Shown one piece after another: positions 8,766-51,136 of a DNA stretch of 55,639 nt (positions within the stretch are counted from its first letter, which is position 1; every line of letters starts with the position of its first letter). The stretch is from Candidatus Falkowbacteria bacterium. Lineage in GTDB: Bacteria; Patescibacteriota; Patescibacteriia; UBA11705; JACRDX01. A program made the translations under genes and the position numbers. The stretch lies in contig JAZDOE010000023.1 in assembly GCA_043798985.1 (NCBI GenBank), forward strand, positions 69,626 through 125,264, in the 5' to 3' direction. The notes under the pieces are model-generated. The model made no database searches. It was not told the origin of the DNA and saw only the letters and a list, made by a program, of their open reading frames with translations.

Positions 8766-8796
8766 AAAAAACCGCGGAATTAATTTAATCCCGCGG
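8766..8796 (-). terminator. Intrinsic terminator after the 8816 gene
   Basis: ccgcgg...ccgcgg stem followed by a T tract on the minus strand; a second hairpin acccgccaa...ttggcgggt at 8721-8751. Confidence 0.55.
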
Positions 8797-8815
8797 CAAG
8801 CGCATTGCGCTTTCG

Positions 8816-9523
8816 CTACAACACATCCCATGTCACAGCCTTAACAGCCAAACCGACTTCTGCCAGCTTTGGGTCAAGATACTTTTTCAGCAGGTCAAGA
8901 AATGCCGCCTGCTGCTCTGTCCGCAGTGGATTGTAAAACTCGGACAACTCCTTGCTGTGCGCGTCGTTGAAATCATACACGACAAGCTTCACGAGCCGCA
9001 GGTATCGTGCTTCGAATTGCTCGTGCGACATCTGCCCGTCGTATGGCGCCATAGCAACGACTGCCTCCACGAACTTCTTGACGTCAACTTCTTCAAACGC
9101 TACCGTGTAATGGACTTCCCGAACTTTCGGGTTCTCGGTGATCGGCTTTACCACCGTCGAAATCGGCTTCGGGCTTGCGGTGTAGTTCACACAGTTGTCA
9201 TAATTCCACGCGAGTGGCACATTAACATCAACAACCTTGCCTTGCTCGTCTAATGTCGCCAATCTTGCTGCGAATGGGTTGGTCGCCCTTCCAATATCAG
9301 ACTGCCAACTATCAGACTGCCAACCCTCTCCGTTGAACTCTACGACCAACGGCGCGAAAAGCAATGCCACTGTGAGCAAGCAACATACCATGAATCCCAG
9401 CGCGATGAACTGCTGCACTCTTCTACCTCTCCGCACACGATCAGCATTTGCGACCTTGCAACCCAACACAATCGCGCCAAGAGCCAGCACCACAATCACC
9501 GCCAACCAAATCCCTGTTGCCAT
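8816..9523 (-). CDS. Two-TM membrane protein, GC-rich, SD-led; weak SPFH-like C-terminus
   Basis: Start moved to ATG 9523 because GGAGGT lies 6 nt upstream; two hydrophobic helices; candidate promoter TTGCTT(9602-9607)-17-TAATCT(9579-9584). Confidence 0.7.
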   Translation of the reverse strand: MATGIWLAVIVVLALGAIVLGCKVANADRVRRGRRVQQFIALGFMVCCLLTVALLFAPLVVEFNGEGWQSDSWQSDIGRATNPFAARLATLDEQGKVVDVNVPLAWNYDNCVNYTASPKPISTVVKPITENPKVREVHYTVAFEEVDVKKFVEAVVAMAPYDGQMSHEQFEARYLRLVKLVVYDFNDAHSKELSEFYNPLRTEQQAAFLDLLKKYLDPKLAEVGLAVKAVTWDVL

Positions 9524-9626
9524 GACCGCACCTCCCTGTTGAATTTCCATTGTCAAAGTCCACTTTTCCCAACAGCTAAGATTAACACACCCAAAAACAA
9601 AAAGCAACCCCTCGCGAAATTGCCAC

Positions 9627-21847: not shown

Positions 21848-22855
21848 TTATCTTGTCGCTAAAATTGAACGTTTATACATTTCAAGATTATCCAACGCGA
21901 CGCCAGTTCCTTTTGCCACGCACAAAGACGGGTCATCTGCCATATAAACCGGCACGCCAATTGCCTTGGAAAGCAAGGTGTCAATATTTCGCAACTGACT
22001 TGAGCCGCCAGACATAATAATTCCTTTATCAATGACATCTGCTGAAAGTTCTGGCGGCGTGTTTTGCAAAACCTCTTTAACGGTCGCGATAATTCCTTCC
22101 AATTCTTTTTGCAATGCTTCGGTAATGTCATTGGAATTCACGGCAATGGTTTTTGGCAAACCTGTAATCATGTCGCGGCCGCGCACTTTCATTACCGCTG
22201 GATTTTCCATGTACATCGCAGAACCGATTTCTATTTTTATATCTTCAGATGTTTTTTCGCCAATGGCCAAATTATATTTGCGGCGGATAAATTCCGCGAT
22301 GGCCGCGTCAAATCTGTTGCCGCCGATTCTGACTGACCGGCACGCCACAATTCCGCCAAAAGAAATAACGGCCGCCTCGGTCGTGCCGCCGCCAACATCA
22401 ACAATCATGTGGCCAGACGGACTTCCAATCGGGATATTCGCGCCGATTGCCGCCGCGATTGGTTCTTTAATAATGTACGCGGCTTTTGCTCCCGCGGCAA
22501 TCGTCGCGTCAATCACCGCTCGGCGCTCTGTTGAAGTGATGCCGGCCGGCACGGCAACCATTACTTCCGGCCGGAACAACCGTAAACCGCCGAGCGCTTT
22601 ATTGATAAAATATCTTAACATTGCTTCTGTAATTCGGTAGTCAGCGATTACTCCGTCTTTAAGCGGCCGCACCGCGACAATAGAATCTGGCGTGCGGCCG
22701 ATCATTTCTTTTGCCTCATCCCCAACCGCCAAAATTCTTTTATCAATAAGAGAAACCGCCACAACCGACGGTTCATTTATAACAATCCCTTTTTTGGGAA
22801 GATGTACCAAAGTATAAGTTGTGCCGAGATCAATCCCGATTTTCTTTATCAACAT
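21848..22855 (-). CDS. mreB: Rod shape-determining protein MreB
   Basis: GIDLGT, EPSVVA, RPLKDGVIAD, GITSTERRAV, VDVGGGTTE, GGSSQL. Confidence 0.96.
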   Translation of the reverse strand: MLIKKIGIDLGTTYTLVHLPKKGIVINEPSVVAVSLIDKRILAVGDEAKEMIGRTPDSIVAVRPLKDGVIADYRITEAMLRYFINKALGGLRLFRPEVMVAVPAGITSTERRAVIDATIAAGAKAAYIIKEPIAAAIGANIPIGSPSGHMIVDVGGGTTEAAVISFGGIVACRSVRIGGNRFDAAIAEFIRRKYNLAIGEKTSEDIKIEIGSAMYMENPAVMKVRGRDMITGLPKTIAVNSNDITEALQKELEGIIATVKEVLQNTPPELSADVIDKGIIMSGGSSQLRNIDTLLSKAIGVPVYMADDPSLCVAKGTGVALDNLEMYKRSILATR

Positions 22856-22870
22856 AATTCATTCGCCCTC

Positions 22871-23371
22871 CTATTTCCGCGTTTCTTGCAGTTCTTTTAC
22901 CGCCAAAATTTTATCTGCCTTTATTTTCGCTTCTTGTTCTAAAAATAATTTATTTACGCCAGGAATCATTAATAGCCAATTGCGGATTAAGCTGATTATT
23001 TTACTTACACTCACCTTAGCAGATTGTATAATTTTTTCAATTTTATTAGCCACGCGTTCACCTTCCTTTTTAAAAGCTTGTTTTTTGTTTTCCGGTAAAT
23101 TCACGTACAAATCCTTCAAATCTTCCTCCAAAATACTCTCAACCGCAACAATATATGGACTTTTTTGGCTAATAGCTGGGCCAGCCGGAGTAATCATTTC
23201 TTCTGGGCTGGTTTGCTGTTCAATAAGCTCTGCTTCTTTTTTGTCCGCTTCAGCAACTGCCAAATCTTCCGCGCGTTCAACTGAACTTGGGGCTTCTTTT
23301 TTGGGCGCGATAGCGCCAACTTCTAGCCGCGGTTTTTCTATTTTGTTGTTTTTTTGTTTTGAAAAATCCAT
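22871..23371 (-). CDS. Hypothetical soluble protein
   Basis: 166-aa ORF tightly packed between cysS and mreB with genome-typical composition. Confidence 0.7.
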   Translation of the reverse strand: MDFSKQKNNKIEKPRLEVGAIAPKKEAPSSVERAEDLAVAEADKKEAELIEQQTSPEEMITPAGPAISQKSPYIVAVESILEEDLKDLYVNLPENKKQAFKKEGERVANKIEKIIQSAKVSVSKIISLIRNWLLMIPGVNKLFLEQEAKIKADKILAVKELQETRK

Positions 23372-24800: not shown

Positions 24801-24840
24801 AAAAAGAAAAGAGGCGCCCAACCGTTGGCTGGGTGCCCTC
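24801..24840 (-). terminator. Intrinsic terminator of the 24845 gene
   Basis: gagg.gccca...tgggtgccctc stem followed by TTTTCTTTTT on the minus strand. Confidence 0.65.
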
Positions 24841-24844
24841 AACT

Positions 24845-25504
24845 TCAATTCGACGTGAGTGTCCACTGCCCACTGTGCGTAGGCTCACCGTTGATAATCA
24901 ACTTGTATGAACCGACAATCTTGCTCGACTCGAACAACTGCTTTTCCACCTTCTTTGCATCCATCATCAGAAACCCTGTCACTCCCGGATCGCCGCCATC
25001 AAGATGCAGAACATCGACCTCCAATGTTCCACTCACTGTTTCCGGCAATTCCTTGCTGCCAGCAGCTGCACCGAGCACGAACATTTCTACAAAAGCCTTA
25101 TCCTGCGCAAATTCAACCGAGTAGCTATAAACCAATGGCTCATCGATCGCCAGCATTTGCAACATCCAAGCGCCACCCACTTCACAGCATGGATACTTCA
25201 AACACTTCATCAACTGTGGGTCAGGATACTCTCCCTCTGGGCATGGATTCACGACCTCCGCGTCCTTCGCATCCTTGTTGTCTTTGACATCCAGCAACAC
25301 ATCAGGAATGTCCGTGACGTCTATTGGCGCCGAGTCTTCCTGTTGGTCAACATCCAAGCCCGAATCGTCTGACTCCACGTCAGGAACCCAACCATCCTCA
25401 CTGTCCGGCGCCGTAAACACCAATCCGTCCCAATTGATCGGATTTTCAAGGGTGCAAGCGGCTGCCAACGCCAAAACTACTGCGAAAAGCGCTGTTTTCC
25501 GCAT
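24845..25504 (-). CDS. GC-rich lipoprotein with Asp-rich linker and Cys motif
   Basis: GGAGGTG SD just before ATG; MRKTALFAVVLALAAAC lipobox; acidic linker; CPEG...C..YPCC; beta-rich C-terminal domain. Confidence 0.8.
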   Translation of the reverse strand: MRKTALFAVVLALAAACTLENPINWDGLVFTAPDSEDGWVPDVESDDSGLDVDQQEDSAPIDVTDIPDVLLDVKDNKDAKDAEVVNPCPEGEYPDPQLMKCLKYPCCEVGGAWMLQMLAIDEPLVYSYSVEFAQDKAFVEMFVLGAAAGSKELPETVSGTLEVDVLHLDGGDPGVTGFLMMDAKKVEKQLFESSKIVGSYKLIINGEPTHSGQWTLTSN

Positions 25505-25536
25505 AACGCACCTCCTTTTTTACGTTCAAGGTTCAA

Positions 25537-26715
25537 TTATTTGGATTCCAAATATACAGAATCCAAATCAACCAATATTAGCACGCTTCCAAGCGTTTTG
25601 TCAAATGGTTGTAAAACCTTACCAATTACATATCCTGATCGCGTTGCTTTCATTCCAACGCCCGGGATATTTGAAGAAGTAATATAATCACCTATTTCCA
25701 ACGCGCCATTCGCGTTTGTTGCTTTCACATAAACAAACCCGGCTAAAGCCAGTGGTGCGCGCTTACCAATTTTTTCAGTTTGACCAGATAAAATCATGGA
25801 TGGATTTTCTGAAATGACTCCAATCGCAGATTTTGAATATGCAGAAGATGCCTTAACAACAACACCATCCGCTGACATTTCAACAATATCTCCGGCTTCA
25901 ACATTTTTTGCAACGTCAACGTTTTCCGCTAAATCTCCAAAACAGAATCCCCCGTCCGTGCAAACACCTGTAACATGCAAACCACCGGTTATCTTCACTG
26001 TACCCGTAAAATCTCCGGCAGTTAAAGAACCTTTAGCAACAATGCCGTTACCATTTTTATCCGCCAAAGTCACAGTAGTATTTGCGTCCTTTTGCGCCTT
26101 GAACGCGTAATCAGCTCCAGCCGCTTCAACAAAATTGTTAGTCGCGCTATTTTCAACTTTCATTCCGAGCTTAGCTGACGAACCATAAACCCCAATTTGG
26201 TTTCCAACCGCATACACGCCCTTGTCACGACCATTGCCATAAAGACCATTTCCTTGCCCGCCAATGTATCCATAATTTCCTAATATATCTAAACCATAAA
26301 GCCCATAAAGTCCGCCCAAGCCCCAAATGCCATAATCAGTTGCGCCAGAGGAAAATATGCCGCCATATTTACCAGTTGCGGAAACCGCTGGCTGGCTAGC
26401 TACCTTTGAATCAAAATAACCAGCGTAAGCTTTATCCCCAAGCCGCGCCTCTGTCAGATTATTTTTATTTTTCGCGACAAGTCCATAGTTAGCGCCAATA
26501 ACATTCAAACCGATATTACTGTCAGCAATCGCGCCATTCAACCCCAATGTTCCGGACTTAGTTTGCAAAGTTGAACTGACATTAATCGGAGCCGCTACAT
26601 TACCAGCCGGCGGATTGTTCGTGGGTTCAGACCATGCCATAACAAAACCAACACCAACCAAACAACTGATCGTGGCAAAAATACTAATTATACTAATAAT
26701 AATTTTTTCGCGCAT
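25537..26715 (-). CDS. Surface fibre-like protein with Gly-rich beta repeats and a C-terminal intramolecular-chaperone/peptidase G2-like domain
   Basis: N-terminal TM then WSEPTNNPPAGNVAAPIN; GxYG repeats; GDLAE...AGDIV...AIGVISENP...LALAG.V.VK...GDYITSS..PG.GMKA...VIGK. Confidence 0.65.
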   Translation of the reverse strand: MREKIIISIISIFATISCLVGVGFVMAWSEPTNNPPAGNVAAPINVSSTLQTKSGTLGLNGAIADSNIGLNVIGANYGLVAKNKNNLTEARLGDKAYAGYFDSKVASQPAVSATGKYGGIFSSGATDYGIWGLGGLYGLYGLDILGNYGYIGGQGNGLYGNGRDKGVYAVGNQIGVYGSSAKLGMKVENSATNNFVEAAGADYAFKAQKDANTTVTLADKNGNGIVAKGSLTAGDFTGTVKITGGLHVTGVCTDGGFCFGDLAENVDVAKNVEAGDIVEMSADGVVVKASSAYSKSAIGVISENPSMILSGQTEKIGKRAPLALAGFVYVKATNANGALEIGDYITSSNIPGVGMKATRSGYVIGKVLQPFDKTLGSVLILVDLDSVYLESK

Positions 26716-39897: not shown

Positions 39898-39914
39898 TGA
39901 TTGAAAATTGATAA

Positions 39915-40910
39915 TTAAAAATTAAAAATTTTCTTACTGATAATCCATTGCGCGACTGTCTGCCAATGTCTTTTTATTGCCGTTCGCGCGGTGCAAATCA
40001 TCCAATAATCAACTTCATATCCCTTTAATTTGTCTCGCGCGGACTGCGCTTCGTCGGAAAACCAAAATTCCTTAAAATCTTTTAGCTCGCTAATATTGCC
40101 CATTATAATGTTATCCATCACGGATGGATAAATATCGCCCTTTGGGTCAAGATAAAAAAAGTCTTGGCCAGAATAACTTGGTAATGGCGCGCGCCGTCCT
40201 TTAATAATATCAATTAAACCATTTATAAAATACGCGCGCGCCCAATTTTTAGGATTAAATCCTTGAACAAACTTTTTGTTCAACTCAACTAATGCGCTGG
40301 CTAATTTCTGCTTGGCGGCTGGCAACTTATTTTTTACCCCGCCGAAATAAAAGTCAGAACTTTGTGCCAAAGCCATGGTAAAACCAATTCCTAAATTTTT
40401 AGAAAACTCAAAAAGTTTATTTAAGTCCTTATAATTATCGCCTGTCATTGTGAACGCGATTTTAACTCTTTTCCCACCCAATAGGGCTTTGGCAAATATT
40501 AAACTATCCAAAACTTTGTGCCAGCCGCCATCTATTCCTCGTATTTTTTCATGCATTTTTCCAAAACCATCAACAGAAATATTTAATTCAATATTTGGCG
40601 CGGCTTCCAAAATTCTAGGCAACTGCTTTTTTATCACATCAACCAAAAAGCCGTTTGACGAAATAACAAGCCGCGCTCTTGGGGCGGCTCGCCTAATTTC
40701 CTCTATTATTTCAACCAAATCAGAACGCAAAAACGGCTCGCCGCCAGAAATATTTATATCCCTTAAACTGGTCGGCAACCTTTTGTACGTTACAGCAGGC
40801 ATTTCTGGAAAATCTTTGATTTTCCAGATGCCGCACATTGTGCAACGCGAATTACAGCGATATGTCACCGCAACAACCGCGTCAACTGGCATTTTTATTT
40901 TTAGTTGCAT
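39915..40910 (-). CDS. Radical SAM protein with degenerate SPASM/twitch region
   Basis: CNSRCTMC, ISGGEP, ISSNG, SVDG; start at 40910 (7 nt after TGcTATAAT) or 40892. Confidence 0.88.
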   Translation of the reverse strand: MQLKIKMPVDAVVAVTYRCNSRCTMCGIWKIKDFPEMPAVTYKRLPTSLRDINISGGEPFLRSDLVEIIEEIRRAAPRARLVISSNGFLVDVIKKQLPRILEAAPNIELNISVDGFGKMHEKIRGIDGGWHKVLDSLIFAKALLGGKRVKIAFTMTGDNYKDLNKLFEFSKNLGIGFTMALAQSSDFYFGGVKNKLPAAKQKLASALVELNKKFVQGFNPKNWARAYFINGLIDIIKGRRAPLPSYSGQDFFYLDPKGDIYPSVMDNIIMGNISELKDFKEFWFSDEAQSARDKLKGYEVDYWMICTARTAIKRHWQTVAQWIISKKIFNF

Positions 40911-40936: not shown

Positions 40937-40972
40937 AAAAGAAAAGCGCCTTGATACTTTGTATCAAGGCGC
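40937..40972 (-). terminator. Intrinsic terminator of the 1550-aa gene
   Basis: Perfect 12-bp stem gcgccttgatac-ttt-gtatcaaggcgc followed by TTTTCTTTT on the minus strand. Confidence 0.85.
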
Positions 40973-40995: not shown

Positions 40996-43900
40996 TTATA
41001 AGCACACATTGACAAACACGATCTCTCCTTCTCCGCCGGGATCAATGACCCCGACACGAACCGAGTACGTCAGCTGCCCACCGCCAGTATAGTAGCACGA
41101 AGCCACCACGCTCGGGGTCCACTGATACAGGTTCCCATTCTTGCAGTTGAAATCAATCCAACCAGACTCTGCCGGAATGGTCAGATTTTCTCCGCGCTCG
41201 CACACCTGCGGTGCGCTCGCGCTCCACGTGGAGTTGTTCGTGGCTCCTTCCCACGAGTACCCCGGAGCTCCGCCCCACCAGACCACTGGCACGTATCCGG
41301 CCGGACACACGAAGTCGCAGGCGAGCAGATTCAATGGACACCCGTTGTCCACCTTGCCGTCGCAGTCATTGTCCAGCCCATCCCCGCAAACCTCCTTGCC
41401 GGGAATCTTGAATGGGCAGTCGTACTCACAGCCATCGTCCGCGACCTTGTTCAAGTCATAGTACGACGAATCGCAGGACAGCACCGTGCACTCTCCCGCG
41501 CTACAACCAACCGTTGCCACGTGCGGCAGAAGCGCGCAGTTCGTATCGCACCCACCGCAATGGCTTGGGTCAGACGCGAACGCGAAGTCCTCATCCACCT
41601 TGCCGTCGCAGTCATTGTCAAACCCGTCGCACTGCTCCCCTCCCTGCACAACGCACGGGCCGTACTCGCAGCCATTGGCCGCGATTCCGTCCACATTGTA
41701 GTACATGGCATCGCACGCGACGAGCTGGCACACGCCATTGACACAGGCCGCGCTTGCATTTGCGAACGAGCACTTGTTCCCGCACTTGCCGCAATTCAGC
41801 GGGTCAATCGCGAGATTGAAGTCCTCGTCGATCTGCTCGTCGCAGTCATTGTCAAAACCGTCGCAAATCTCCGGCACCGCTGACTTGCCGCCGAGGCATT
41901 CGCCCCATTTTCCAGCAACGCATGTCTGCGTGCAAACCTTGCAAAGACCTTCGTCCGTTCCATTGGTCTTGGTCTCACCGTTTTTGCACGAACAACCTTC
42001 GTTGAAACTGCCATCGCAGTCTTCGTCCTTGCCAGACGCATCGCAATCCTCCGGACCTGCGAACACGCAAACGTATTCGCAGCCATTGGCCGCAACGCCA
42101 TCCAGATCAAACCGATTCGGCAGACAGGAATCTACCGCACACTTGCCTTTCTCGCACTTCGCAACCGCGCCGTCAAGCGAACACACGTTTCCGCACTGCC
42201 CGCAATTCTGGCTGTCAGACTGGACATTGAAGTCTTCATCCACAAGCCCGTCGCAGTCGTCATCCACTCCATTGCACTTCTCCACACCAGCATTCAGGCA
42301 CAGATACTCGCAACCATTGGACGCGTCCTTGTCCGCATCGTAGAACAGCGCGTCGCATGCGCCCATCAGGCACTTGCCATTTCCACACAGCGCTTGCGCT
42401 CGCGGGAACCAGCATTCATTTCCGCACCAGCCACAATTGGCCGGGTCAGTCTGCATGTTGAACCCATTGTCCACCGCGCCGTCGCAGTCATTGTCCTTGC
42501 TGTCACACAGCTCAGGTACTGCCCCCACGCCGCCGACACAGTCAGTCCACTCTCCGCCAAGGCAGAATTGCAAGCATGGCTCACACTCTCCCTCGTCAGA
42601 GCCAACCAGCATGAACTCCTCATCCTTGCATTTGCAGTCTTCGTTGAAACTTCCATCGCAGTCTTCGTCTTTCATGCCCGCGTCACAGAGTTCAACCCCG
42701 CTTGGCGTGCACTTGTACTCGCAACCGTTTTCAGGCTGTCCGTCCAGATCGTAGAATCCCGGCTGGCACCACGAAACAATGCACTCGCCATCATCGCAGC
42801 TCACAAACGCCTTGTACAACGAGCACACATTGCCGCACTGGCCGCAGTTGCTCACTTCGGACGAAAGGTCAAACCCCTCGTCCACCAGCCCGTCGCAGTT
42901 GTCGTCAACGCCATTGCATTTCTCCACACCCGCATTCAGGCACAGATACTCGCAACCATTGACCGCGTCCTTGTCCGCATCGTAGAACAGCTTGTCGCAG
43001 GCTCCGAGCTTGCACTCGCCATCCACGCACATTGCCTGCGCGTTCGCGAACGAACACGAGTGACCGCACCAACCACAGTTGGCCGTGTCGGTCTGCGTAT
43101 TGAAGTCCTCGTCAACCGAACCGTCGCAGTCATCGTCCGCATTGTTGCAGAGTTCAGGCGCCGGCGTCTTACCGCCAAGGCACAAACCCCACTTCCCGCC
43201 AACGCACGTCTGCGTACAAGCGACACACTCACCCTCGTCCGTGCCACCTGTCTTGGTCTCGCCGTCAACACAGCCGCAACCCTCATTGGCGCTACCATCG
43301 CAATCTTCGTCAACCATTGCGATGTCGCAGACTTCCGCACCAGTCGTAGTGCATTTGTACTCGCAGCCATTTTCAGGCTGTCCGTCCAAATCCACGTATC
43401 CGGTATTGCAGCCGTCCACCAAGCACTTGCCGAAGAAGCAGACATTGTTGCTAACCTGCCACAGGTTGCACACCTTGCCGCACTGCCCGCAGTTGTTCAG
43501 GTCGTTGAAGAAATTGAAATCCTCGTCAACCTGACCGTCGCAGTCGTCGTCAACGCCATTGCACTTCTCAACCCCGCTCGGAACGCAAGCATACTCGCAT
43601 CCATCAGCAGGGTCGTTGTTCACGTCGTGGTAAAAGCCCGTGCATCCTCCCATTTTGCACAAGCCAGCGACGCACAGCGCATTGGCATTGGAAAACGTGC
43701 AGACATGCCCGCACCAGCCGCAGTTCACAGGATCAGCCATCAGGCTGAAATCCTCGTCAACCGAGCCGTCGCAGTCATTGTCGCTGTAGTCGCAGACTTC
43801 CGGCGTCGCAGAAACTCCGCCAACGCAATCAGACCACTGACCGTCAACACACGTCTGCGTGCACTTCTGGCAAACTCCCTTATCCGTACCAACGGACTTG

Positions 43901-45648
43901 GTATCACCGTCCGCGCACTTGCAGTCCTCGTTGAACGAACCATCGCAATCTTCGTCAACCATCGCGACATCGCACAGTTCGACTCCTGCCGCTGTACACT
44001 TGTACTCGCAGCCATTCAGCGGGTCCTCGTCCAAATCCACGAAACCCGCATCACAGGTCGCGACCATGCACTTGCCGAAGAAACACATCGGCTGGACTTT
44101 GTACAGAGAACAAATGTTCCCGCACTTGCCGCAGTTGTCCACGTCGTCAAACAGACCGAAATCTTCATCCGCTTCGCCGTCGCAATCATCATCCACTCCG
44201 TTGCATTTTTCCGCGCCAGTAAACCAGCACGGATATTCGCAACCAGGAGAGTACTGGTCAATGTCATACCAACCTGCATTGCATTCGACGAGCTCACACT
44301 CGCCATCCACACACACCATGCCCGCGTTCGGCTCTCCACATATCACTCCGCAAAAACCGCAGTTGTCCACGTCGGTCAGCAGGTCAAAATCTTCGTCCTT
44401 CTGTCCGTCGCAGTCATTGTCGCTGTAGTCGCAAACTTCCATCTGCGACTTGATCTCGCCGACACACTGTTTGCTTCCATCTGCCAGACAGAACGAAACG
44501 CCCATCTGGCACTCGCCAACCTGCGAACCGCAGATCGCGCCAACCACGCACGGACAACCCTCGTCAACTTCGCTGTCGCAATCCTCGTCCGCAAATCCGT
44601 CGCAGACTTCTGGGCCCACGAGTTGGCACTCGCACCCATCAGCCGCGTCTTCATTCGCGTCCGCAAATCCGACATCGCACTTCTCGGCAACGCAGTTTCC
44701 GTAGAAACACATTGCCTTGGCGTTCGCGAACTCGCACTTGTTGCCGCACTGGCCGCAGTTGTTCACATCAGTCAACAAGTTGAAATCCTCGTCAACCAAC
44801 CCATCGCAGTCATTGTCCAGACCGTCGCACTTCTCAATGCCAGCCCACGTGGGCAAGCACTGGAACTCGCAACCATCGCTCTCAAAACCATTGAGATCAA
44901 CGAAAGACGACTGGCATGCGTACACGCAATTGCCAGCAACGCAAGTTGCTGACGCGTTTGGCGTCGCGCACTTGTTGCCGCACTCGCCGCAGTTGTCCAC
45001 GTCCTTCTTCAGGTTGAACGCCTCGTCACTGTAACCGTCGCAATCATTGTCCTTGCCGTCACAAACCTCGGGCGTCGGCGAAATTCCGCCGACACAGTCG
45101 GCCCACTTGTTGTCCGCGCCGCAAGTCTGCTCGCCCGGGTGACACTCACCTTTGTTCAAATTCTGCGACAAACCGCAGAAGCGAACTTCGCCAGCCGTGC
45201 ACTCGGTCTTGACCGGCGGCTGTTCGCCATTGTTCCCGTTGGCCGAACCATTGTTGTTGCCGCCATTGTTTCCACCGGACGAACCGTTGTTGCCAGCCGG
45301 CACCCAGTTCGCATCCTGACCAGCAGTGCTTCCGCACCGGCCGTTCACGCAAACCAGCCCACCGGCCCCGTACGTTTCGTAGCAGTTGAAAGCCGAGATG
45401 CACTCGTCCTTGCAGCTGCCGTCGTCCATGCACTTGCCGGTCGCGCAGTCGTCGTCCGAAAGGCATCCGACCTGCCGAACCACGTCGCCCGCCAGGTCAT
45501 CTTTGCCCCACGAGGAATCCTCGGGGCAACCAGATGCGAACACCACCATCAGCACGCACCACACCATTGTCACGAGTTTCTTCATGGCACCACCTCCATT
45601 GTTTTTGCCATTGCCCAACCAGAAAAACGAACCGTTTCTCTTCTTCAT
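40996..45648 (-). CDS. Giant Cys-rich repeat lipoprotein with 18 MopE-like CDGxDNDCDG motifs
   Basis: FASGC lipobox after ATG 45585; six ~214-aa units, each with three C[DN]..D[NDE][DN]CD motifs and two NCGxCG-type modules. Confidence 0.9.
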   Translation of the reverse strand: MKKRNGSFFWLGNGKNNGGGAMKKLVTMVWCVLMVVFASGCPEDSSWGKDDLAGDVVRQVGCLSDDDCATGKCMDDGSCKDECISAFNCYETYGAGGLVCVNGRCGSTAGQDANWVPAGNNGSSGGNNGGNNNGSANGNNGEQPPVKTECTAGEVRFCGLSQNLNKGECHPGEQTCGADNKWADCVGGISPTPEVCDGKDNDCDGYSDEAFNLKKDVDNCGECGNKCATPNASATCVAGNCVYACQSSFVDLNGFESDGCEFQCLPTWAGIEKCDGLDNDCDGLVDEDFNLLTDVNNCGQCGNKCEFANAKAMCFYGNCVAEKCDVGFADANEDAADGCECQLVGPEVCDGFADEDCDSEVDEGCPCVVGAICGSQVGECQMGVSFCLADGSKQCVGEIKSQMEVCDYSDNDCDGQKDEDFDLLTDVDNCGFCGVICGEPNAGMVCVDGECELVECNAGWYDIDQYSPGCEYPCWFTGAEKCNGVDDDCDGEADEDFGLFDDVDNCGKCGNICSLYKVQPMCFFGKCMVATCDAGFVDLDEDPLNGCEYKCTAAGVELCDVAMVDEDCDGSFNEDCKCADGDTKSVGTDKGVCQKCTQTCVDGQWSDCVGGVSATPEVCDYSDNDCDGSVDEDFSLMADPVNCGWCGHVCTFSNANALCVAGLCKMGGCTGFYHDVNNDPADGCEYACVPSGVEKCNGVDDDCDGQVDEDFNFFNDLNNCGQCGKVCNLWQVSNNVCFFGKCLVDGCNTGYVDLDGQPENGCEYKCTTTGAEVCDIAMVDEDCDGSANEGCGCVDGETKTGGTDEGECVACTQTCVGGKWGLCLGGKTPAPELCNNADDDCDGSVDEDFNTQTDTANCGWCGHSCSFANAQAMCVDGECKLGACDKLFYDADKDAVNGCEYLCLNAGVEKCNGVDDNCDGLVDEGFDLSSEVSNCGQCGNVCSLYKAFVSCDDGECIVSWCQPGFYDLDGQPENGCEYKCTPSGVELCDAGMKDEDCDGSFNEDCKCKDEEFMLVGSDEGECEPCLQFCLGGEWTDCVGGVGAVPELCDSKDNDCDGAVDNGFNMQTDPANCGWCGNECWFPRAQALCGNGKCLMGACDALFYDADKDASNGCEYLCLNAGVEKCNGVDDDCDGLVDEDFNVQSDSQNCGQCGNVCSLDGAVAKCEKGKCAVDSCLPNRFDLDGVAANGCEYVCVFAGPEDCDASGKDEDCDGSFNEGCSCKNGETKTNGTDEGLCKVCTQTCVAGKWGECLGGKSAVPEICDGFDNDCDEQIDEDFNLAIDPLNCGKCGNKCSFANASAACVNGVCQLVACDAMYYNVDGIAANGCEYGPCVVQGGEQCDGFDNDCDGKVDEDFAFASDPSHCGGCDTNCALLPHVATVGCSAGECTVLSCDSSYYDLNKVADDGCEYDCPFKIPGKEVCGDGLDNDCDGKVDNGCPLNLLACDFVCPAGYVPVVWWGGAPGYSWEGATNNSTWSASAPQVCERGENLTIPAESGWIDFNCKNGNLYQWTPSVVASCYYTGGGQLTYSVRVGVIDPGGEGEIVFVNVCL

Positions 45649-45730
45649 TTTGTCCTCCTTGTATCTTGTCTCGAGTTGTCAAAAAACACCAGAAATTTGC
45701 CTGCAAAACAGGCAGTTTCCAGAACAGGTA

Positions 45731-45759
45731 ATTTTAGCGCGTTCAATTCATTTTGTCAA
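45731..45759 (-). promoter_or_regulatory. Sigma70 promoter of the 1550-aa gene
   Basis: TTGACA(45754-45759)-17-TAAAAT(45731-45736). Confidence 0.75.
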
Positions 45760-45774
45760 GCACAAGTCCGTATG

Positions 45775-45845
45775 TAAATTTACACAAGCTCCGCCGCGCT
45801 GGCAAGGTAAAAGAAAAAGCCCCATGCATGTTAGCATAGGGCACC
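45775..45845. repeat. Terminator plus conserved tail, copy 1
   Basis: taaatttacacaa-c.ccgccg-...-ggtaaaa-aaaagcccc-atgc..gcat..gg.gc, also at 47137-47200. Confidence 0.7.
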
Positions 45846-45885
45846 AAGATTGTTTTTCGTCCCTCTCGGTTTAGGACAGCTGGTT

Positions 45886-46998
45886 TTACCAGCAGGATTT
45901 TTCGAACTTGACCTTTCCGTGGATACCGGTGTCTTCCATCTCGTAGTCGGCCGGGGTACAGAGAATTTGCACTTTGAGGTAATCGCCCCAGATGCCATTT
46001 TCAGCATTGAAGCAATTGAACTCAAAGGCCATCTCTCCCCACAGGCACAGCTCGCCGAACGGAATCTTGAACTCCGTGCCGTTCGCAACGTCTGCGGCCG
46101 TGAATGCCCACCAGATACGAACAGATGTGTAATCCGTCGGACAGGTGATCATGCACGTCGCGCCGTCAAACGGCTGGATTGCGACGCCATTGTCAGCCAC
46201 GACTTCCGGCGACTCGGCATCAGCCGCTGCCGAACTGGCATCAACTTCTGCGACCACATCGGTCTCTTCCACACTGGCATCCTGCGACGCGACATCGCCC
46301 TCCTCGAGCTTGTCCTCCGTAGCCGCATCGGCGAAGGAGGATCCGCTGTCACCCCCGGCAACCACATCCTCGGTCGGCTGTGGCGCAACGTCTTCGGTCT
46401 GCGTGATCACGTCCGGTTCGGGCTGCGGTTCAGGCTCGTCGTTCGGCGGATTGTCGTTCCCACCGACTTTGACGCAAAAGCCGTCCTCGCAGATGTACCC
46501 GACGCCGCAATGGCACTCGGGCTCCGGCTGGTTGTCTTCCTGCGTCGCGATTTCCAGCGGATAGCGCTGTTGCTCCAGCGTATCGCCAGAGAAATCCGCC
46601 GAAACATCCGGCTCCGGCATAACTGGAACGCACTCTCCTTCGTTGTTGCAGACGAATCCGTCCGCACATCCGTCGTCATCTTCACACTCTGGCGGCAGTT
46701 GCGTTGCGTCCGCGTACTGCTTACATCCCCACGGCCCAGTGCAGTCGCCTTCGCTGTACGCGTCCTCTGTGTCGTCAGACACATCGTCTTCCGGCTTCGG
46801 CGGGTTGCTCGTGTCATCCTCATGGTTCTCGCCGAACACGTCCTCCTCCATGGACGAATCCACGTACACGTCCTTCGTACAGCCGCTCGTGAAGCATGCC
46901 GCGACCGCCAGCGCCAGCATGGCCAACACCATCGCACCAACGCTCCATGCCTGCGCAACCTGCTCCTGCTCAAACCCGCACTCATTCATCGTCTTCAT
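45886..46998 (-). CDS. Acidic Cys-containing surface (lipo)protein
   Basis: AGAGGTG SD; hydrophobic stretch ending FTSGC; D/E-rich linkers; small Cys modules; C-terminal domain similar to that of the 1550-aa protein. Confidence 0.85.
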   Translation of the reverse strand: MKTMNECGFEQEQVAQAWSVGAMVLAMLALAVAACFTSGCTKDVYVDSSMEEDVFGENHEDDTSNPPKPEDDVSDDTEDAYSEGDCTGPWGCKQYADATQLPPECEDDDGCADGFVCNNEGECVPVMPEPDVSADFSGDTLEQQRYPLEIATQEDNQPEPECHCGVGYICEDGFCVKVGGNDNPPNDEPEPQPEPDVITQTEDVAPQPTEDVVAGGDSGSSFADAATEDKLEEGDVASQDASVEETDVVAEVDASSAAADAESPEVVADNGVAIQPFDGATCMITCPTDYTSVRIWWAFTAADVANGTEFKIPFGELCLWGEMAFEFNCFNAENGIWGDYLKVQILCTPADYEMEDTGIHGKVKFEKSCW

Positions 46999-47067
46999 GG
47001 CTCACCTCTCTAATTGTTTGATTTTCAAGTTTCAACATTATCGTAGGCACACACCTACGAACAAATC

Positions 47068-47096
47068 ATTATATCATATCCTAACAAGAAAGTCAA
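47068..47096 (-). promoter_or_regulatory. Sigma70 promoter of the 45886-46998 gene
   Basis: TTGACT(47091-47096)-17-TATAAT(47068-47073) with extended TG; leader hairpin tcgtagg...cctacga at 47041-47060. Confidence 0.8.
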
Positions 47097-47136
47097 CTGC
47101 CGCGCCTTAATATTATCTAACTTTACACACATTCTC

Positions 47137-47200
47137 TAAATTTACACAAACCCCGCCGTTGACAGGGTAAAAAAAGCCCCAAATGCGTTGCATTCGGAGC
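47137..47200. repeat. Terminator plus conserved tail, copy 2
   Basis: Imperfect direct repeat of 45775-45845, in the same position relative to the upstream gene. Confidence 0.7.
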
Positions 47201-47240
47201 TTGCCAGGAATATTATTGTCCATCCTGACATGGACTCGGT

Positions 47241-48083
47241 CTAGAGACAGTAGTTGTACACATGGCCGCGATACGGGTCGAACTTGACGTAGCTCGCCGC
47301 CTTGCCGCTGACCATCACCGACGCAGGGGTCTTCGCCGCTCCGATCCACGTGACCTGGCCAGCGGTTTTGCCTGCGTGCTTGCCCACGGTGAGATCGACC
47401 ACGACCTCACAGCCGATCGCGTAGGTGGACAGATAGCCGCTGAAACAGCCATCGCTCCCGATTACGAGATCCTGTGCCGAACCCCACTTGCTTGGGTCGC
47501 TCGAGGTCGCCTCACTCCACGACATCTGTCCGAAGTCTGCCGAAATTTCCGCGGCCGTGAGCGCGTAGCAGGTCTTGACCAGCTTGCCGGTCGTCATCGC
47601 GGCCGGAGTCGGAGTCGTGCCTGTGCCAGTCGGGGTCGTCCCCGGCGTCACCTTGTGGCACTGCCCATCCCCATCGAACTGCGGCGCGCTGCACGCGTAG
47701 CTCTCGTCGATGATCGTACAGGAATCGTAGGACTTCGCCTGCTCTCCCGTGTACGGATCAAACTCGAACACCACGTAGCAGCCCGGAACGCACAGGTTCG
47801 TTGGCGAGCCGAGGTCATCGCTGGCCTGCTTGTTGCTTGCGCAGTACCAGCCCATGCCGAGAGACGCGCAGTCCATGTTCATGTCCGTCTCGTCTGCGTC
47901 ATCCGTGACCACGCCGCACTCGGTCTTGCTCACCATCCCAACGTACGCAGGGGCGTCATCGCCCTCCACGTTCACGACGGTCGGCTCGCGGTCGTCGAAC
48001 ACCGAAACTTCCCGCTCGCACCCGAACACCGCCAGCGCCATCACAACCATCATCGAAACCAGCAAAACGATCGTCTTCTTCAT
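47241..48083 (-). CDS. GC-rich lipoprotein, two domains joined by a Thr/Pro linker
   Basis: GGAGGTG SD; MKKTIVLL...AVFGC; Cys-containing N-domain; TPGTTPTGTGTTPTP linker; ends YNYCL. Confidence 0.85.
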   Translation of the reverse strand: MKKTIVLLVSMMVVMALAVFGCEREVSVFDDREPTVVNVEGDDAPAYVGMVSKTECGVVTDDADETDMNMDCASLGMGWYCASNKQASDDLGSPTNLCVPGCYVVFEFDPYTGEQAKSYDSCTIIDESYACSAPQFDGDGQCHKVTPGTTPTGTGTTPTPAAMTTGKLVKTCYALTAAEISADFGQMSWSEATSSDPSKWGSAQDLVIGSDGCFSGYLSTYAIGCEVVVDLTVGKHAGKTAGQVTWIGAAKTPASVMVSGKAASYVKFDPYRGHVYNYCL

Positions 48084-48223
48084 GGCATCACCTCCAAAAA
48101 GTTAATTGCCAATGTTCACTCTGTCTCGATCCTTGACACCCGTCAAGAACCCAGAAAAGTGGGGAAACCCGTGTTAGCGTTTCCCCGTTTTTGGCCATGC
48201 CCCGTTGGGACACAGCCGTCGCG

Positions 48224-48640
48224 CTACTTGTCGCGGATGTGCACCTCTGTCGTTGTGACCGAATCCACGACATAGTACGTGCAAGCGCCAAGTGCCACAG
48301 CCCCGCCGACGTATAGCGCGTAGTCCCAGAAACCCGCGTCCTTCGTCTCGGGCTGGACACTCTGCAACGGTGCAATCGGAGCTGCCGGCACATAGACGGT
48401 CATCTTGCCGCCATTTTCCATGACCATCTTCCCCTTGCCTGCCGGAGCGACGACCTGCACCACCCCCTTTGGGCAATCCAGCTCGTTCTTGGCGTTATCC
48501 TTGCACGTACAACCCGAGGGAACCTCGAGCAGTCCGCACATGACCACCGCCGTTCCGTTCACCGGAGCCTCCTGCGCCGTCACCACGGTCGCGAACATCA
48601 CTGCCACCGCCATCACAACCAACGCAACGATCTTTCTCAT
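48224..48640 (-). CDS. Small secreted protein with C-terminal hydrophobic helix
   Basis: GGAGGTG SD before ATG 48640; signal peptide ...VVTA|Q; four Cys in the soluble region; FWDYALYVGGAVALGACTYYV. Confidence 0.75.
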   Translation of the reverse strand: MRKIVALVVMAVAVMFATVVTAQEAPVNGTAVVMCGLLEVPSGCTCKDNAKNELDCPKGVVQVVAPAGKGKMVMENGGKMTVYVPAAPIAPLQSVQPETKDAGFWDYALYVGGAVALGACTYYVVDSVTTTEVHIRDK

Positions 48641-48835
48641 CTCACACCTCCAGTTGTCTGTTGTCCAAGTCAAAGATCAAACGCCCAACCTCGATTCACT
48701 TCATTATTGTCAGTATTAGTTCTGAAAAAATTCAGTATGACATTCGTAAATTCGTTGAAATGAATCCAGATTGGGCCCCTGTCAAATGTTACTGACAGGG
48801 TCCCGAGACACGACGATGTCGCGCCTCTTACTGCT

Positions 48836-49489
48836 CTACTGCACCGGAGTCGGTTCCCACCGGATGGTGACCCGTTCCTGCGGCGGTTCGGCCGCGGGCT
48901 GTGCGACCGGTGCCGGTTCAGGCGAAGCCACGACTGGTTCGGGTTGCGCAACCCTCGCCGCGTCCGCGTCTGCCTTCAGCGCCTCGGCCAACTTCTTGGC
49001 CTTCCGCGCCTCCGCCCGCGCCGCCTTGAGCTGCTTCTGCAGGTCAGTGACGACCTCGGCGTCGGCCTTGTCCGCGAGATCCGCCTTCAGCGCCTTGACT
49101 GATCCAGTGAACTCGGTTCGCAGCGTCGCAAGGTCGTTCTTGCTCGCCCTCTTGGTCAGTTCTGCGTCCACGTATTCCGTGTTCGCCTTCTTCGCCAGCT
49201 CCTCGTCCACGTATTCCTCGCCCGCCTTGACCGTCTCGGCCAGAGACTTGAGCTCCTCTGTCCCTGCCTTCCGTGACAGCTCGTCCGTCGTCTTCGCCGC
49301 CAGCTCCTCCAGCGCCGCCTGGTCAGCCTTGCCGACCACCGCGCCTCTGAGCTCCTCCACGCCAGAACGCGTTTCCTCCACTCCGGCCAAGAGCGGCGAA
49401 GCAACCTTGGCGTACCCGAAGTAGCCGCCGACACCGACCAGCACGATCAACACGATCACCCACCAGAACCGACGCAAGAAATTCTTCAT
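48836..49489 (-). CDS. Membrane-anchored coiled-coil protein with KA(D/N/G/S) repeats
   Basis: GGAGGTG SD before ATG 49489; N-terminal TM; repeats such as GKADQAALEEL, KKANTEYVDAEL, DKADAEVV; Pro/Ala-rich tail. Confidence 0.85.
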   Translation of the reverse strand: MKNFLRRFWWVIVLIVLVGVGGYFGYAKVASPLLAGVEETRSGVEELRGAVVGKADQAALEELAAKTTDELSRKAGTEELKSLAETVKAGEEYVDEELAKKANTEYVDAELTKRASKNDLATLRTEFTGSVKALKADLADKADAEVVTDLQKQLKAARAEARKAKKLAEALKADADAARVAQPEPVVASPEPAPVAQPAAEPPQERVTIRWEPTPVQ

Positions 49490-49569
49490 GGCAATCACCT
49501 CCATTGTTTGTTGCCGTTGTCAAAAACCATGGACAGACTTTGGCAATCGCCTAATCTGACCAACAAACC

Positions 49570-49598
49570 ATCTTATCAAATTATTCTGACCCTGTCAA
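49570..49598 (-). promoter_or_regulatory. Sigma70 promoter of the 49489 gene
   Basis: TTGACA(49593-49598)-17-TAAGAT(49570-49575) with extended TG. Confidence 0.7.
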
Positions 49599-49640
49599 GT
49601 ATAGGGCGTCAATAATAGCATTTTAAGGCTTAATTTAAAC

Positions 49641-49665: not shown

Positions 49666-49707
49666 GGCCCTACCAACATTCAAAATTCAAAATTAAAAAT
49701 TCAAAAT

Positions 49708-50310
49708 TTAGCTTCTAACTATCACCCACCCGATTCCAACCAACAACCCCACCAAAATTGACACCAAACCATTTACTAAAAAGTTGGGTCGGTCAATATA
49801 TTTTGTTGCCAATGGCGATTCAATCATTTTCAAATCAATATCCCCGATTCCCACATATTCAGCTGACTGCGTTGACAAAACATACGCAACAGCTTGGCTC
49901 AACTTTAAGGATTGATCACGATCTTTGTGGAAAACATCTATGGACAAAACCGAAGTCGTGCCAACCAAATTCGCGTCAACCATTTTTTGCCATTGCTTGC
50001 GCTTTTGGTTTTCGTCCTTTTTGAAATATTTTTCATCAATACCAAACCCAGCGTTCAAAACTTTTGTGAAAAATGAATTTGAATAAACAACCTGCGCCAG
50101 ATTGCTGCCGATTTTCTCGGCTGATTTAGCGGCGCTGTACGCGTCATAACCAACCACTGCTTTTTGCACCACCAAAAATTTAACATTCGCGCGATACTCA
50201 AACGGCTGCAACAACGTTAAAATTATTCCGAGAACAAATACCAGCAAAACAATCGCGCCGATATTTTTCTTGTGATGCATTACCTGTCTGAAATAATTTG
50301 GTTCAAACAT
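49708..50310 (-). CDS. Wzz/CapA-like polysaccharide chain-length determinant
   Basis: Two TMs flanking an extracellular domain; YRANVKFLV, RPNFLVNGLVSILVGLLVG. Confidence 0.75.
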   Translation of the reverse strand: MFEPNYFRQVMHHKKNIGAIVLLVFVLGIILTLLQPFEYRANVKFLVVQKAVVGYDAYSAAKSAEKIGSNLAQVVYSNSFFTKVLNAGFGIDEKYFKKDENQKRKQWQKMVDANLVGTTSVLSIDVFHKDRDQSLKLSQAVAYVLSTQSAEYVGIGDIDLKMIESPLATKYIDRPNFLVNGLVSILVGLLVGIGWVIVRS

Positions 50311-50316
50311 ACACGT

Positions 50317-50372
50317 AAAATTTTAAATTTTATAATTTTCAATTTTAAATCAATTTTTAATTTTTGAATTTT
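50317..50372. repeat. AT-rich 7-nt-periodic repeat fragment
   Basis: aattttaaattttataattttcaattttaaatcaattttt; related fragments at 49678-49710, 51151-51216 and 55176-55204. Confidence 0.55.
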
Positions 50373-51136
50373 TATGTCCACTGCGCGGTAAAAAGCAACA
50401 GCAACAAACAACCACCTGCAATCAACGCGTGTATCAAAACATTTTTGCGAGTCATCTGCCCTGTCAATTCGGCCTTTGAAATTCCTATCAATAAATAATA
50501 AGCAAACGCCAAAATCGCGGCATTCACATAATAACCGCTTGGCAAAAATCCAAGCCCAACAAATAGCTCAATGGTTATCAAACTAATTATTAGATTGAAC
50601 AAACGACTTTTGCGCCATTCAATTTTCTGATTCCAAAAAATTTCAGAATTGATAACGAACACGCCCACACCCGCGGCGATTACCAATGGCCACGTCGGAA
50701 AATTCAAAAGCACCATGAATCCGTACAATCCGCTCATCAAAAAGAAAAACGAAAGCAATCCAATATAGTACGCGAAATTTTCCAAAGTGTATGGATAGTA
50801 TTTCAACGGATAATAAAAATAAAGAAGCATTTGCTCAAAATAAATCCAAAAAATGGCCGCGACAATTACAGCAAACACATGATAAAACCATGGTTGCGAC
50901 AAAAACACAGCGAACAAAAAACTGGCCAATAAAAAAATGGTTGGTCCTGTAAAAAATTGCAACCACCTGCGACCAAGCTTAGCTTTGCATAAATACCAAG
51001 TCAACAAAAATGTCGCGGCCAACATAACAATCGGCGCGACAAACCAAAACTTGCTGGCATAGCGCATTAACTCAAGCCCCGCGACGTACATGGCCGCGTA
51101 GGCAAACAACAAAATATATTGAAATAACAAACGCAT
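50372..51136 (-). CDS. Multi-pass membrane protein of unknown function
   Basis: About 8 hydrophobic helices; start moved to MRLLF (51136) because the longer start lies in a repeat. Confidence 0.75.
   Translation of the reverse strand: MRLLFQYILLFAYAAMYVAGLELMRYASKFWFVAPIVMLAATFLLTWYLCKAKLGRRWLQFFTGPTIFLLASFLFAVFLSQPWFYHVFAVIVAAIFWIYFEQMLLYFYYPLKYYPYTLENFAYYIGLLSFFFLMSGLYGFMVLLNFPTWPLVIAAGVGVFVINSEIFWNQKIEWRKSRLFNLIISLITIELFVGLGFLPSGYYVNAAILAFAYYLLIGISKAELTGQMTRKNVLIHALIAGGCLLLLLFTAQWT

Follow-up and report, generated by a model that had tools for sequence, protein, structure and literature searches.

Why should a single bacterial genome lead a small set of its genes with strong Shine-Dalgarno (SD) sites while most of the others appear to do without them, and why should the SD-led genes also be the GC-rich ones? 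This question is raised by a stretch of 55,639 nucleotides (here called the window) from Candidatus Falkowbacteria bacterium, a very small groundwater member of the Candidate Phyla Radiation (CPR) (GenBank assembly GCA_043798985.1, contig JAZDOE010000023.1, positions 69,626 to 125,264). A preliminary description of the window singled out seven GC-rich genes for membrane or secreted proteins (starts at 9523, 25504, 45648/45585, 46998, 48083, 48640 and 49489), proposed that they follow a gene-expression grammar distinct from that of the core genes, and offered two origins for them: acquisition from a GC-rich donor, or a native high-expression class. We call these seven of the ~46 window genes (~15%) class II and the core genes class I. 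Our analyses of the window, together with ~150 kb of relatives' loci (labelled L006-L018), favour the view, to which we give a probability of roughly 0.7, that class II is native and vertically inherited rather than an imported island, and that selection maintains it as a class whose mRNAs are leadered, depend on an SD and encode lipoproteins and membrane-anchored proteins.

The window codes for a type IV pilus, recJ, lepA, murJ, a dimeric-type glyS, hrcA-grpE-dnaK-dnaJ, mreB, a glycan locus, smpB and tmRNA, with nearly all genes on the minus strand; a homolog of one of the genes bears the annotation 'Candidatus Falkowbacteria'. Against a background of 37-46% GC per kilobase, bases 41001-49000 reach 54-61%, a step of ~18 points from flanks of 37-44% (37-39% in the kilobases next to them). 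At third codon positions the G+C fraction (GC3) is 0.58-0.83 in the seven class II genes versus 0.43 in the pooled core genes.

Initiation signals and codon composition of the two classes

Strong SD sites were found ahead of all seven class II genes, as the preliminary description had stated, lying 4-6 nt before the ATG (reference range 5-9 nt) with duplex energies of -10.7 to -15.4 kcal/mol, as computed against CACCUCCUUU (neither the window nor the fetched loci of relatives contain rRNA genes). The site is GGAGGTG at starts 9523, 25504, 45585, 48083, 48640 and 49489, GAGAGGTG at 46998 and AAGGAGG at 45648, and the form GGAGGTG(AT) would pair with a 16S 3' tail of the type ...CACCUCC... in the manner of classical SD/anti-SD pairing. 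Among the 39 core starts scored, 38 had duplex energies above -6 kcal/mol; the earlier remark that no comparable SD was seen ahead of the core genes inspected stands for these and fails for mreB, which has an AGGAGGG site. Strong SD sites thus precede 7/7 class II genes and 1/39 core genes (Fisher p = 1.5e-7; Mann-Whitney test on duplex energy, p = 3e-5). The sense strand of the window has eight GGAGGTG heptamers, of which six are class II SDs, and all eight non-coding sense GGAGG motifs within 1-52.6 kb precede a start codon. The mreB site is kept between species (AGGAGGG for the window gene at 21848-22872, TGGAGGG for the gene at 8778-9785 of L013), and since it is both strong and conserved, SD recognition is not limited to the GC-rich class. 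From the retention of perfect GGAGGUGA-type SDs on a conserved subset of genes and on mreB, we infer that this lineage has a working anti-SD.

The core genes carry other signals. T occupies position -1 in 35 of the 39 core genes, C in five of the seven class II genes, and a T directly before the start codon may be a signal of an SD-independent mode of initiation. An extended -10 box (TGnTAnAAT) ends 6-10 nt ahead of the ATGs of the operon-leading core genes at 4661, 6289, 8574, 20569 and 40910, so that their mRNAs are predicted to be leaderless or nearly so; the last of these, a radical-SAM gene following the MopE-type gene of the island, starts behind TGTGCTATAAT plus 7 nt and is itself predicted to be leaderless. 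Similar placements recur ahead of core genes in the relatives' loci, and operon-internal core genes have no SD either. From the position of these boxes, many core genes look leaderless. The proposal that one genome combines two expression grammars, of which the SD-led one goes with GC-rich genes whose products are membrane or secreted proteins, holds up.

The composition of class II depends on codon context. When codons were sorted by their first two bases, GC3 was alike in the two classes where both bases are G/C (0.63 in class II, 0.58 in core; per-gene p = 0.15) and far apart where one is A/T (0.72 versus 0.39) or both are (0.72 versus 0.32; p = 4e-8). This was replicated in the Joint Genome Institute (JGI) relative (class II/core 0.71/0.67 for both-G/C and 0.75/0.32 for both-A/T codons) and in L011 (0.56/0.56 and 0.65/0.33), and the codon fractions of Ala and Gly are almost equal between class II and core. 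A uniform push towards G/C, be it from mutation bias, biased gene conversion or leftover donor composition, was rejected on arithmetic, as the shift in A/T contexts predicts a GC3 of 0.83-0.93 in G/C contexts, where 0.63, 0.71 and 0.56 were observed. Promoter-bearing spacers inside the island have a GC content of only 40-44%, placing the GC excess mainly in coding sequence.

These contexts bear on two further explanations. In the first, surface genes that recombine often have their GC3 lifted by GC-biased gene conversion or by a mutational bias acting locally, and the SDs and promoters are incidental. It would agree with the faster evolution of class II proteins than of most neighbours (45-74% versus 71-83% identity) and with the GC content of spacers beside class II genes (0.43, versus 0.33 in core spacers); however, a bias that takes A/T-start codons from 0.32 to 0.72 should take G/C-start codons from 0.58 to ~0.88 and not to the 0.63 seen, and it misses likewise in two other genomes (expected 0.93 versus 0.71, and 0.83 versus 0.56). 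The third base in class II moreover depends on the next base, G/C being commonest when A/T follows (0.84 versus 0.65), a dependence reversed in core genes, and such a bias would not account for the conservation of SDs, -35 boxes and leaders. We consider this explanation quite unlikely.

In the second, ordinary translational selection, class II would simply comprise the most highly expressed genes, with optimal C-ending codons. For Phe, Tyr, Ile and Asn, whose C-ending codons reportedly served as markers for Sharp et al. in 2005, the C-ending share does climb from 0.15-0.28 to 0.54-0.76 among class II genes, but the G-ending codons of Lys, Glu and Gln shift equally strongly, and the genes for ribosomal proteins, IF3, DnaK, GrpE and LepA keep core usage (Phe-C 0.07-0.16), from which we conclude that the genome shows no general selection of this type and that high-expression codon selection is not the cause. 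This explanation is unlikely, and of the suggested native high-expression class, conserved sites, SDs and composition uphold the native part, whereas the high-expression part is not borne out, ribosomal-protein, IF3 and DnaK genes having core codon usage.

At the nucleotide level, T|A at codon junctions reaches 0.32-0.43 of its expected frequency in class II genes, compared with 0.67-0.75 in core genes. Such signals in the coding sequences, although not unique to the class, hint that selection acts on class II mRNAs to remove stretches rich in AU. Counts of -10-like hexamers were too low for testing. Avoidance of A/T runs was dropped as a class signature, as it proved to be mainly T|A-junction avoidance, common to ordinary GC-rich genes. 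Absolute mRNA folding is stronger in class II (-33 to -46 versus -20 to -32 kcal/mol per 120 nt in core genes). Extra folding beyond composition was rejected as a property of the class: against synonymous shuffles z ran from -0.6 to -2.2 (MopE -5.9), with core controls at 0.4 to -2.5. In core genes, as a separate observation, runs of A and T of at least 4 nt are enriched over synonymous shuffles (z ~+11), as are G/C runs (z ~+8.5); in this respect the core, being compositionally clumped, behaves in the opposite way to class II.

Conservation in relatives and the origin of class II

Relatives were reached through exact-protein look-ups of homologs, and include a JGI contig (L006), an independent Logan contig (L007), Hainich groundwater loci (L011/L012) and two Falkowbacteria genomes (L013, L014); a scan of genome contigs with the flanking radical-SAM protein gave a single irrelevant archaeal match, and a metagenome scan short contigs only. 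Up to five other CPR lineages carry, at matching sites, the three-gene operon at 49489-47241, the pair formed by the 370-amino-acid (aa) and MopE genes, and the solo gene at 25504, which there too are SD-led and GC-richer than the genes around them. The distribution is not patchy: class II genes occupy syntenic sites in L006/L007, L009/L010, L011/L012, L013, L014 and L018.

In L006/L007 an operon for 222/140/278-aa proteins comes after the genes that precede its counterpart in the window (SmpB, AI-2E, 114-aa, 254-aa and Wzz-like). With a GC of 0.64-0.65, a GC3 of 0.78-0.88 and SD duplex energies of -11 to -14.5 kcal/mol, it stands among neighbours that have a GC of 0.39-0.47 and no SD, except for a 160-aa gene (2053-2535) with an SD-like site 13 nt before the ATG; after the operon come a signal peptidase gene and hisS. 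On a contig separate from this operon, L009/L010 carry a 380-aa/MopE pair (MopE 71% identity) directly ahead of the radical-SAM locus, with the downstream order of the window (radical-SAM, Wzy, two glycosyltransferases, GHL15 and, further on, hrcA, grpE and dnaK). The operon and the 370-aa/MopE modules are adjacent in the window, L008 and L018 but form separate loci in the L006/L009 organism; the 8.6-kb island therefore arose when two older modules came to lie side by side, one being the 217/138/280-aa operon and the other the 370-aa/MopE pair. The same block recurs, SD-led and GC-richer than its neighbours, in L011/L012, L017 and L018 at 41-47% MopE identity: in L018 (42%) directly ahead of the radical-SAM gene, in L011 (47%) with one 328-aa gene between, and on the short L017 contig (41%) just upstream of a 260-aa gene that begins with the same radical-SAM N-terminal motif. 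Synteny extends to the solo gene at 25504, which both Falkowbacteria genomes carry in the same order (DnaJ-..-[gene]-CysRS-166aa-MreB), flanked by a 399/407-aa gene and cysS, with SD and GC offset kept in both and promoter and leader hairpin in one.

Under conserved residues, identity at four-fold sites between the window and L006 is 0.36-0.51 in both gene classes, about the base-composition expectation. Despite this near saturation, both genomes hold class II genes at a GC of 0.60-0.65 and core genes at 0.39-0.44; since a foreign composition left unmaintained should have decayed over such a distance, the composition appears to have been maintained.

A chimeric origin of the contig, with a GC-rich contig mis-assembled onto a CPR contig, had been raised as a concern and would account for the abrupt change in composition; nor did any public run hold the exact strain (related strains only, word share <=0.16, with short contigs below 95% identity, none spanning a junction). 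Yet each type of junction is reproduced by independent assemblies: that between the Wzz-like gene and the operon in L006 (JGI) and L007 (Logan), that between the operon and the 370-aa gene in L008 and L018, and that between MopE and radical SAM in L009, L010 and L018 (in L011 with the 328-aa gene between). Two more class II genes sit singly among core genes, GC skew is unchanged through bases 41001-49000, and strand bias is continuous over the junctions. A chimera is for these reasons very unlikely, to the point that we regard it as negligible.

If the island and the two solo genes had come recently by horizontal transfer from a GC-rich, Myxococcota-like host or prey, with their composition not yet adjusted, this would fit the sharp GC step, the promoter and terminator that come with each unit, and the abundance of PF11617 repeats in Myxococcota, Planctomycetota and Bradymonadia. 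Against it stand, besides the orthologs at the same sites of diverged CPR genomes with near-saturated synonymous sites, three further lines of evidence. First, for six of the seven proteins every relative is of CPR type (only 3-6 each in billions of proteins, all on similar CPR contigs); the likeness to Myxococcota-type proteins noted earlier concerns the PF11617 family. Second, the choice of Ala, Gly and Pro codons is that of the host core and far from donor type, as seen in MopE homologs of one Myxococcota and one Planctomycetota genome (GC 0.71-0.72, GC3 0.92-0.97 in all contexts, GCA+GCT ~1%), while promoter spacers have host-like GC and the skew is unbroken. Third, no integrase or transposase Pfam match, no PHROG hit and no direct repeat bracketing 40996-49600 was found, and the island's neighbours (lepA, recJ, cysS, the dnaK operon, the glycan locus) offer no prophage context. 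Acquisition from such a donor is thus not borne out, and we hold it to be highly unlikely.

Short intergenic stretches at 39889-39932, 49675-49710 and 50322-50375, beside the island borders, had a contig depth of up to 134 (against ~2 elsewhere) from many organisms; seen in four groundwater or drinking-water metagenomes, they are widespread repeat elements.

Signals and products of the class II units

The features of the class II units are collected in Table 1. All four promoters of the preliminary description, three of the TTGAC(A/T)-17 type and a weaker fourth, were located (49598, 47096, 45759 and 25604), the last spanning 25604-25575 (TTGACA-18-TAATAT). The genes at 48640 and 48083 have none of their own and are internal to the operon starting at 49598. 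Of the terminator-like hairpin said to follow each gene, five are canonical terminators; after the genes ending at 48836 and 48224 there are long structured spacers instead.

Table 1. Class II genes and expression signals in the window, with the SD site of mreB
Feature	Position	Strand	Details
Three-gene operon promoter	49570..49598	-	TTGACA-17-(TG)TAAGAT; -35 and part of -10 region align with L006/L007
Predicted 5' untranslated region, ~74 nt	49490..49563	-	5' hairpin; UUGACAAC/CA-rich stretch; SD GGAGGTG 49496-49502
217-aa protein	48836..49489	-	N-terminal membrane anchor and coiled coil; GC 0.65, GC3 0.82
Structured spacer in operon	48641..48835	-	Ends UUGAC..ACAAC plus SD 48645-48651; fold z = -4.8; near-identical in L008
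138-aa protein	48224..48640	-	Signal peptide and C-terminal membrane helix; GC3 0.76; orthologs in L006, L008
Conserved structured spacer	48084..48223	-	Three hairpins; SD 48089-48095; fold z = -5.2
280-aa lipoprotein	47241..48083	-	Orphan family; lipobox AVFGC; GC3 0.83
Operon intrinsic terminator	47174..47202	-	13-bp stem, then TTTTT
370-aa gene promoter	47068..47096	-	TTGACT-17-(TG)TATAAT
370-aa acidic lipoprotein	45886..46998	-	Lipobox FTSGC; SD GAGAGGTG at 47003-47010
370-aa gene intrinsic terminator	45819..45842	-
MopE gene promoter	45731..45759	-	TTGACA-17-TAAAAT
MopE Cys/Asp-rich lipoprotein, 1550/1529 aa	40996..45648	-	At least 9 PF11617 motifs; two in-frame SD-led starts, 45648 and 45585
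MopE gene terminator	40946..40972	-
Solo cassette	24817..25604	-	Promoter; 64-nt leader with 5' hairpin (z = -3.2); SD 25509-25515; 219-aa lipoprotein 24845-25504; hairpin 24833-24817
Solo cassette	8771..9535	-	SD 9529-9535; 235-aa membrane protein 8816-9523; terminator 8797-8771
SD of mreB, AGGAGGG	22856..22872	-	Sole core exception; start 22855; duplex -10.7

A search for a promoter of the solo cassette at 8771..9535 gave no strong one. In the leaders of all four promoter-led units a stem-loop lies 2-4 nt from the predicted 5' end; for the operon leader, whose transcription start was placed from the -10 box, the alignment reads GG..CC in the outer stem of the window and CC..GG in L006. A TTGA(A/C) box stands 28-37 nt ahead of the ATG in six of the seven class II units, and where the minus strand matches CTTTGACAAC with no more than one mismatch, which it does six times, four of the matches fall inside class II leaders. 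At this distance from the ATG, six of the seven leaders have a (C/T)TTTGACAA(C/T)-like box (9549-9558, 25529-25536, 45675-45684, 47028-47035, 48660-48673 and 49516-49525 of the minus strand), which recurs in several orthologs; its spacing is unsuited to a -35 role, and it presumably resembles boxA (Nus-factor) sites. Leaders and spacers had no Rfam match even at E = 1. The solo-cassette leader of L013 holds an inserted GC-rich palindrome-like element (CCCGCCAAAGGACGGGCAGG, 5925-5950) that is absent from the window and L014, and a sequence of this type also stands ahead of the radical-SAM and Wzy genes in L009.

The spacer ahead of the 280-aa gene deserves separate mention. About 110 nt of it are almost invariant in three genomes (the window, L006 9874-10000 and L008 809-956) and include two compensatory pairs, although synonymous sites in the flanking coding sequences have reached saturation. 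In the last hairpin of the spacer, CAUUGGCA is paired with UGCCAUG, which includes the start codon of the 280-aa gene. The 110-nt intercistronic RNA element is a candidate cis-regulator.

As for the products, the translations agree with the original claim that all seven are membrane or secreted proteins, each beginning with a hydrophobic export or anchor segment. Lipobox-like ends were read by eye in five of them (FASGC, FTSGC, AVFGC, LAAAC and IVLGC), and the relative locus L006 includes an LGT gene (PF01790). The MopE protein matches PF11617 (Cu-binding_MopE, 'putative metal-binding motif') over nine stretches with 154.7 bits, against a gathering cut-off of 27, and has 1858 homologs; the other six proteins have no Pfam or PHROG match. 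At the matching site of L006/L007 the 217-aa protein has an ortholog of 45% identity and a GC of 0.65. For the 280-aa protein there are three relatives with identities of 69-72%, and a 33% identical homolog in L018; its AlphaFold model was unusable (predicted local distance difference test, pLDDT, 30). The 370-aa protein has only five relatives among 1.84 billion representatives and a 62% identical ortholog in L008, and shares with the MopE protein a C-terminal beta-sandwich domain, modelled with a pLDDT of ~88 for residues 276-370, for which no Protein Data Bank match was better than E = 0.16.

Two smaller observations concern the protein starts. The starts of the MopE gene lie 63 nt apart (45585-45648, minus strand), each with an SD, the second SD being encoded by the Gly-Gly codons GGA GGT; L009 retains this layout at 10001-10066, with a 21-residue peptide between the starts (window ..FFWLGNGKNNGGGA, L009 ..VKWFNNGNNGGNA), and two L018 proteins carry a similar KWFLNN extension before the signal peptide. 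The dual starts may represent a conserved pre-signal-peptide extension or a dual-start device. In addition, the signal-peptide cores at 46903-46925, 48027-48049 and 48599-48621 of three unrelated island proteins have 78-91% nucleotide identity over 23 nt, reflecting either a common choice of codons and residues or a shared 5' module.

A proposed expression mode and its relation to known systems

We propose that the two classes are expressed as follows. Class I genes are AT-rich and SD-less, with operon-first genes typically predicted to be leaderless or nearly so. Class II genes would be transcribed from promoters with near-consensus -35 and -10 boxes into mRNAs whose leader of 60-80 nt carries a stem-loop, a CA-rich UUGACAA stretch and a GGAGGUG(A) SD, and would be initiated by classical 30S binding through the 16S anti-SD; the units end in intrinsic terminators, and all products are exported. 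Their coding sequences use G/C-ending codons where the first two bases include A/T and avoid T|A junctions more strongly than core genes do. The SD-independent route would rely on unstructured, AU-rich starts, and it is plausible that class II mRNAs need SD pairing because AU-poor, structured mRNAs cannot take that route. Selection, on this proposal, would keep class II mRNA AU-poor and structured, and hence SD-dependent; such mRNA may better withstand nucleases or give rise to fewer internal starts of the SD-independent kind, and the separate signals would let surface proteins be regulated apart from housekeeping genes.

A further step, which we offer only tentatively and think less probable than not, would be that Falkowbacteria-like CPR bacteria run two insulated expression channels, an AU-rich, leaderless or SD-less one for housekeeping and an AU-poor, hairpin-capped, SD-dependent one for a surface and host-contact regulon. 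Translation of class II might then be gated as a block through whether the 16S anti-SD is available, for which bS21 of Flavobacteria is the model, or else through leaders masking the SD or AUG or through small RNAs that mimic the anti-SD, and the codon-context rule (third-position G/C only after A/T) would be an imprint left by selection separating the channels.

Several points weigh against class II as a native, selection-maintained class. The GC offset varies by lineage (in L018, GC3 is 0.26-0.28 in core genes and 0.35-0.62 in class II, with MopE at 0.35). T|A-junction avoidance is similarly strong in ordinary GC-rich genes of other phyla, the depletion of A/T runs in the window rests mostly on the repetitive MopE gene and is weak without it, and class II mRNAs are no more folded than their own shuffles beyond the core level (median z ~-1.3 and -1.6). 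The MopE repeat family may be of ancient foreign origin, and a search of public data for an RNA run found none.

Set beside horizontally acquired islands, for which Lawrence and Ochman are said to have proposed an amelioration model, and phage 'morons', the class II units share atypical composition and the form of self-contained promoter-gene-terminator units between housekeeping genes. Unlike these, they lie at sites conserved in diverged relatives, with undecayed composition, the host codon pattern and no mobility or phage genes. The leaders likewise recall that of Escherichia coli ompA, in which a 5'-terminal stem-loop reportedly stabilises the mRNA of an abundant envelope protein (attributed to Emory, Bouvet and Belasco, 1992): by analogy, a hairpin within a few nt of the predicted 5' end is followed by an unstructured stretch, a strong SD and a gene for an exported protein. 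They differ in having no sequence relation to ompA, and both the class II transcription starts and any stabilising effect are predictions.

Mixed initiation as such has precedents. Group C of GeneMarkS-2 (Actinobacteria, Deinococcus-Thermus) combines leaderless with SD-led initiation (Lomsadze et al. 2018, PMC6028130), and the window resembles it in having some genes with a -10 box 6-10 nt before the start and others leadered with an SD. In contrast to group C, the SD-led minority here is also set apart by composition (GC3 ~0.3 higher), is limited to exported proteins with -35-dependent promoters, and leaves the remaining operon-internal core genes without SD, only the seven class II genes and mreB having one; coupling of composition and initiation is not part of the group C description, whose text does not mention CPR genomes (PMC6028130). 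Tsurumaki et al. (2022, PMC9297842) reported loss of the anti-SD motif in a subgroup of Parcubacteria, about half of Parcubacteria lacking it, and place Falkowbacteria within 'Parcubacteria 1'. As in those lineages, the CPR genes studied here are mostly without SD; unlike the Parcubacteria that lack an anti-SD, the lineage of the window retains perfect SDs of the GGAGGUGA type on a conserved subset and mreB. Bacteroidia have ribosomes 'blind' to the SD together with an SD-led rpsU (Jha et al. 2020, PMC7797042; McNutt et al. 2023, PMC9976891; PMC13000453); their genomes are likewise mostly SD-less, and the few strong SDs that they keep are read only by a particular ribosome state, as a separate translational channel. 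They differ in that the set there is essentially rpsU alone, with no composition offset, and here some 15% of window genes, all for exported proteins. Full-text literature searches found no published account of coupled composition and initiation classes in CPR bacteria.

Where a metagenome-assembled CPR genome has a stretch of unusual GC, the routine reading is horizontal transfer or contamination, and the stretch may be cut out of the bin. If the stretch described here is an old, syntenic and selection-maintained part of the genome, such composition-based calls will mislabel genes for surface proteins relevant to symbiosis, and the codon-context test, in which GC3 is sorted by the first two codon bases and compared with true GC-rich homologs, offers a simple, transferable way to decide whether a GC-rich class is native or imported. 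A lineage in which the SD is largely abandoned yet kept for an exported set would be a natural system for studying the function of SD pairing, and bears on why some Parcubacteria keep the anti-SD and others lose it. Gene finders that apply a single start model will misplace starts in one class. In L013 (6001) we noted an SD-led ATG 21 nt upstream of the publicly called start, and in L018 two calls (107 and 1013) that probably start too early.

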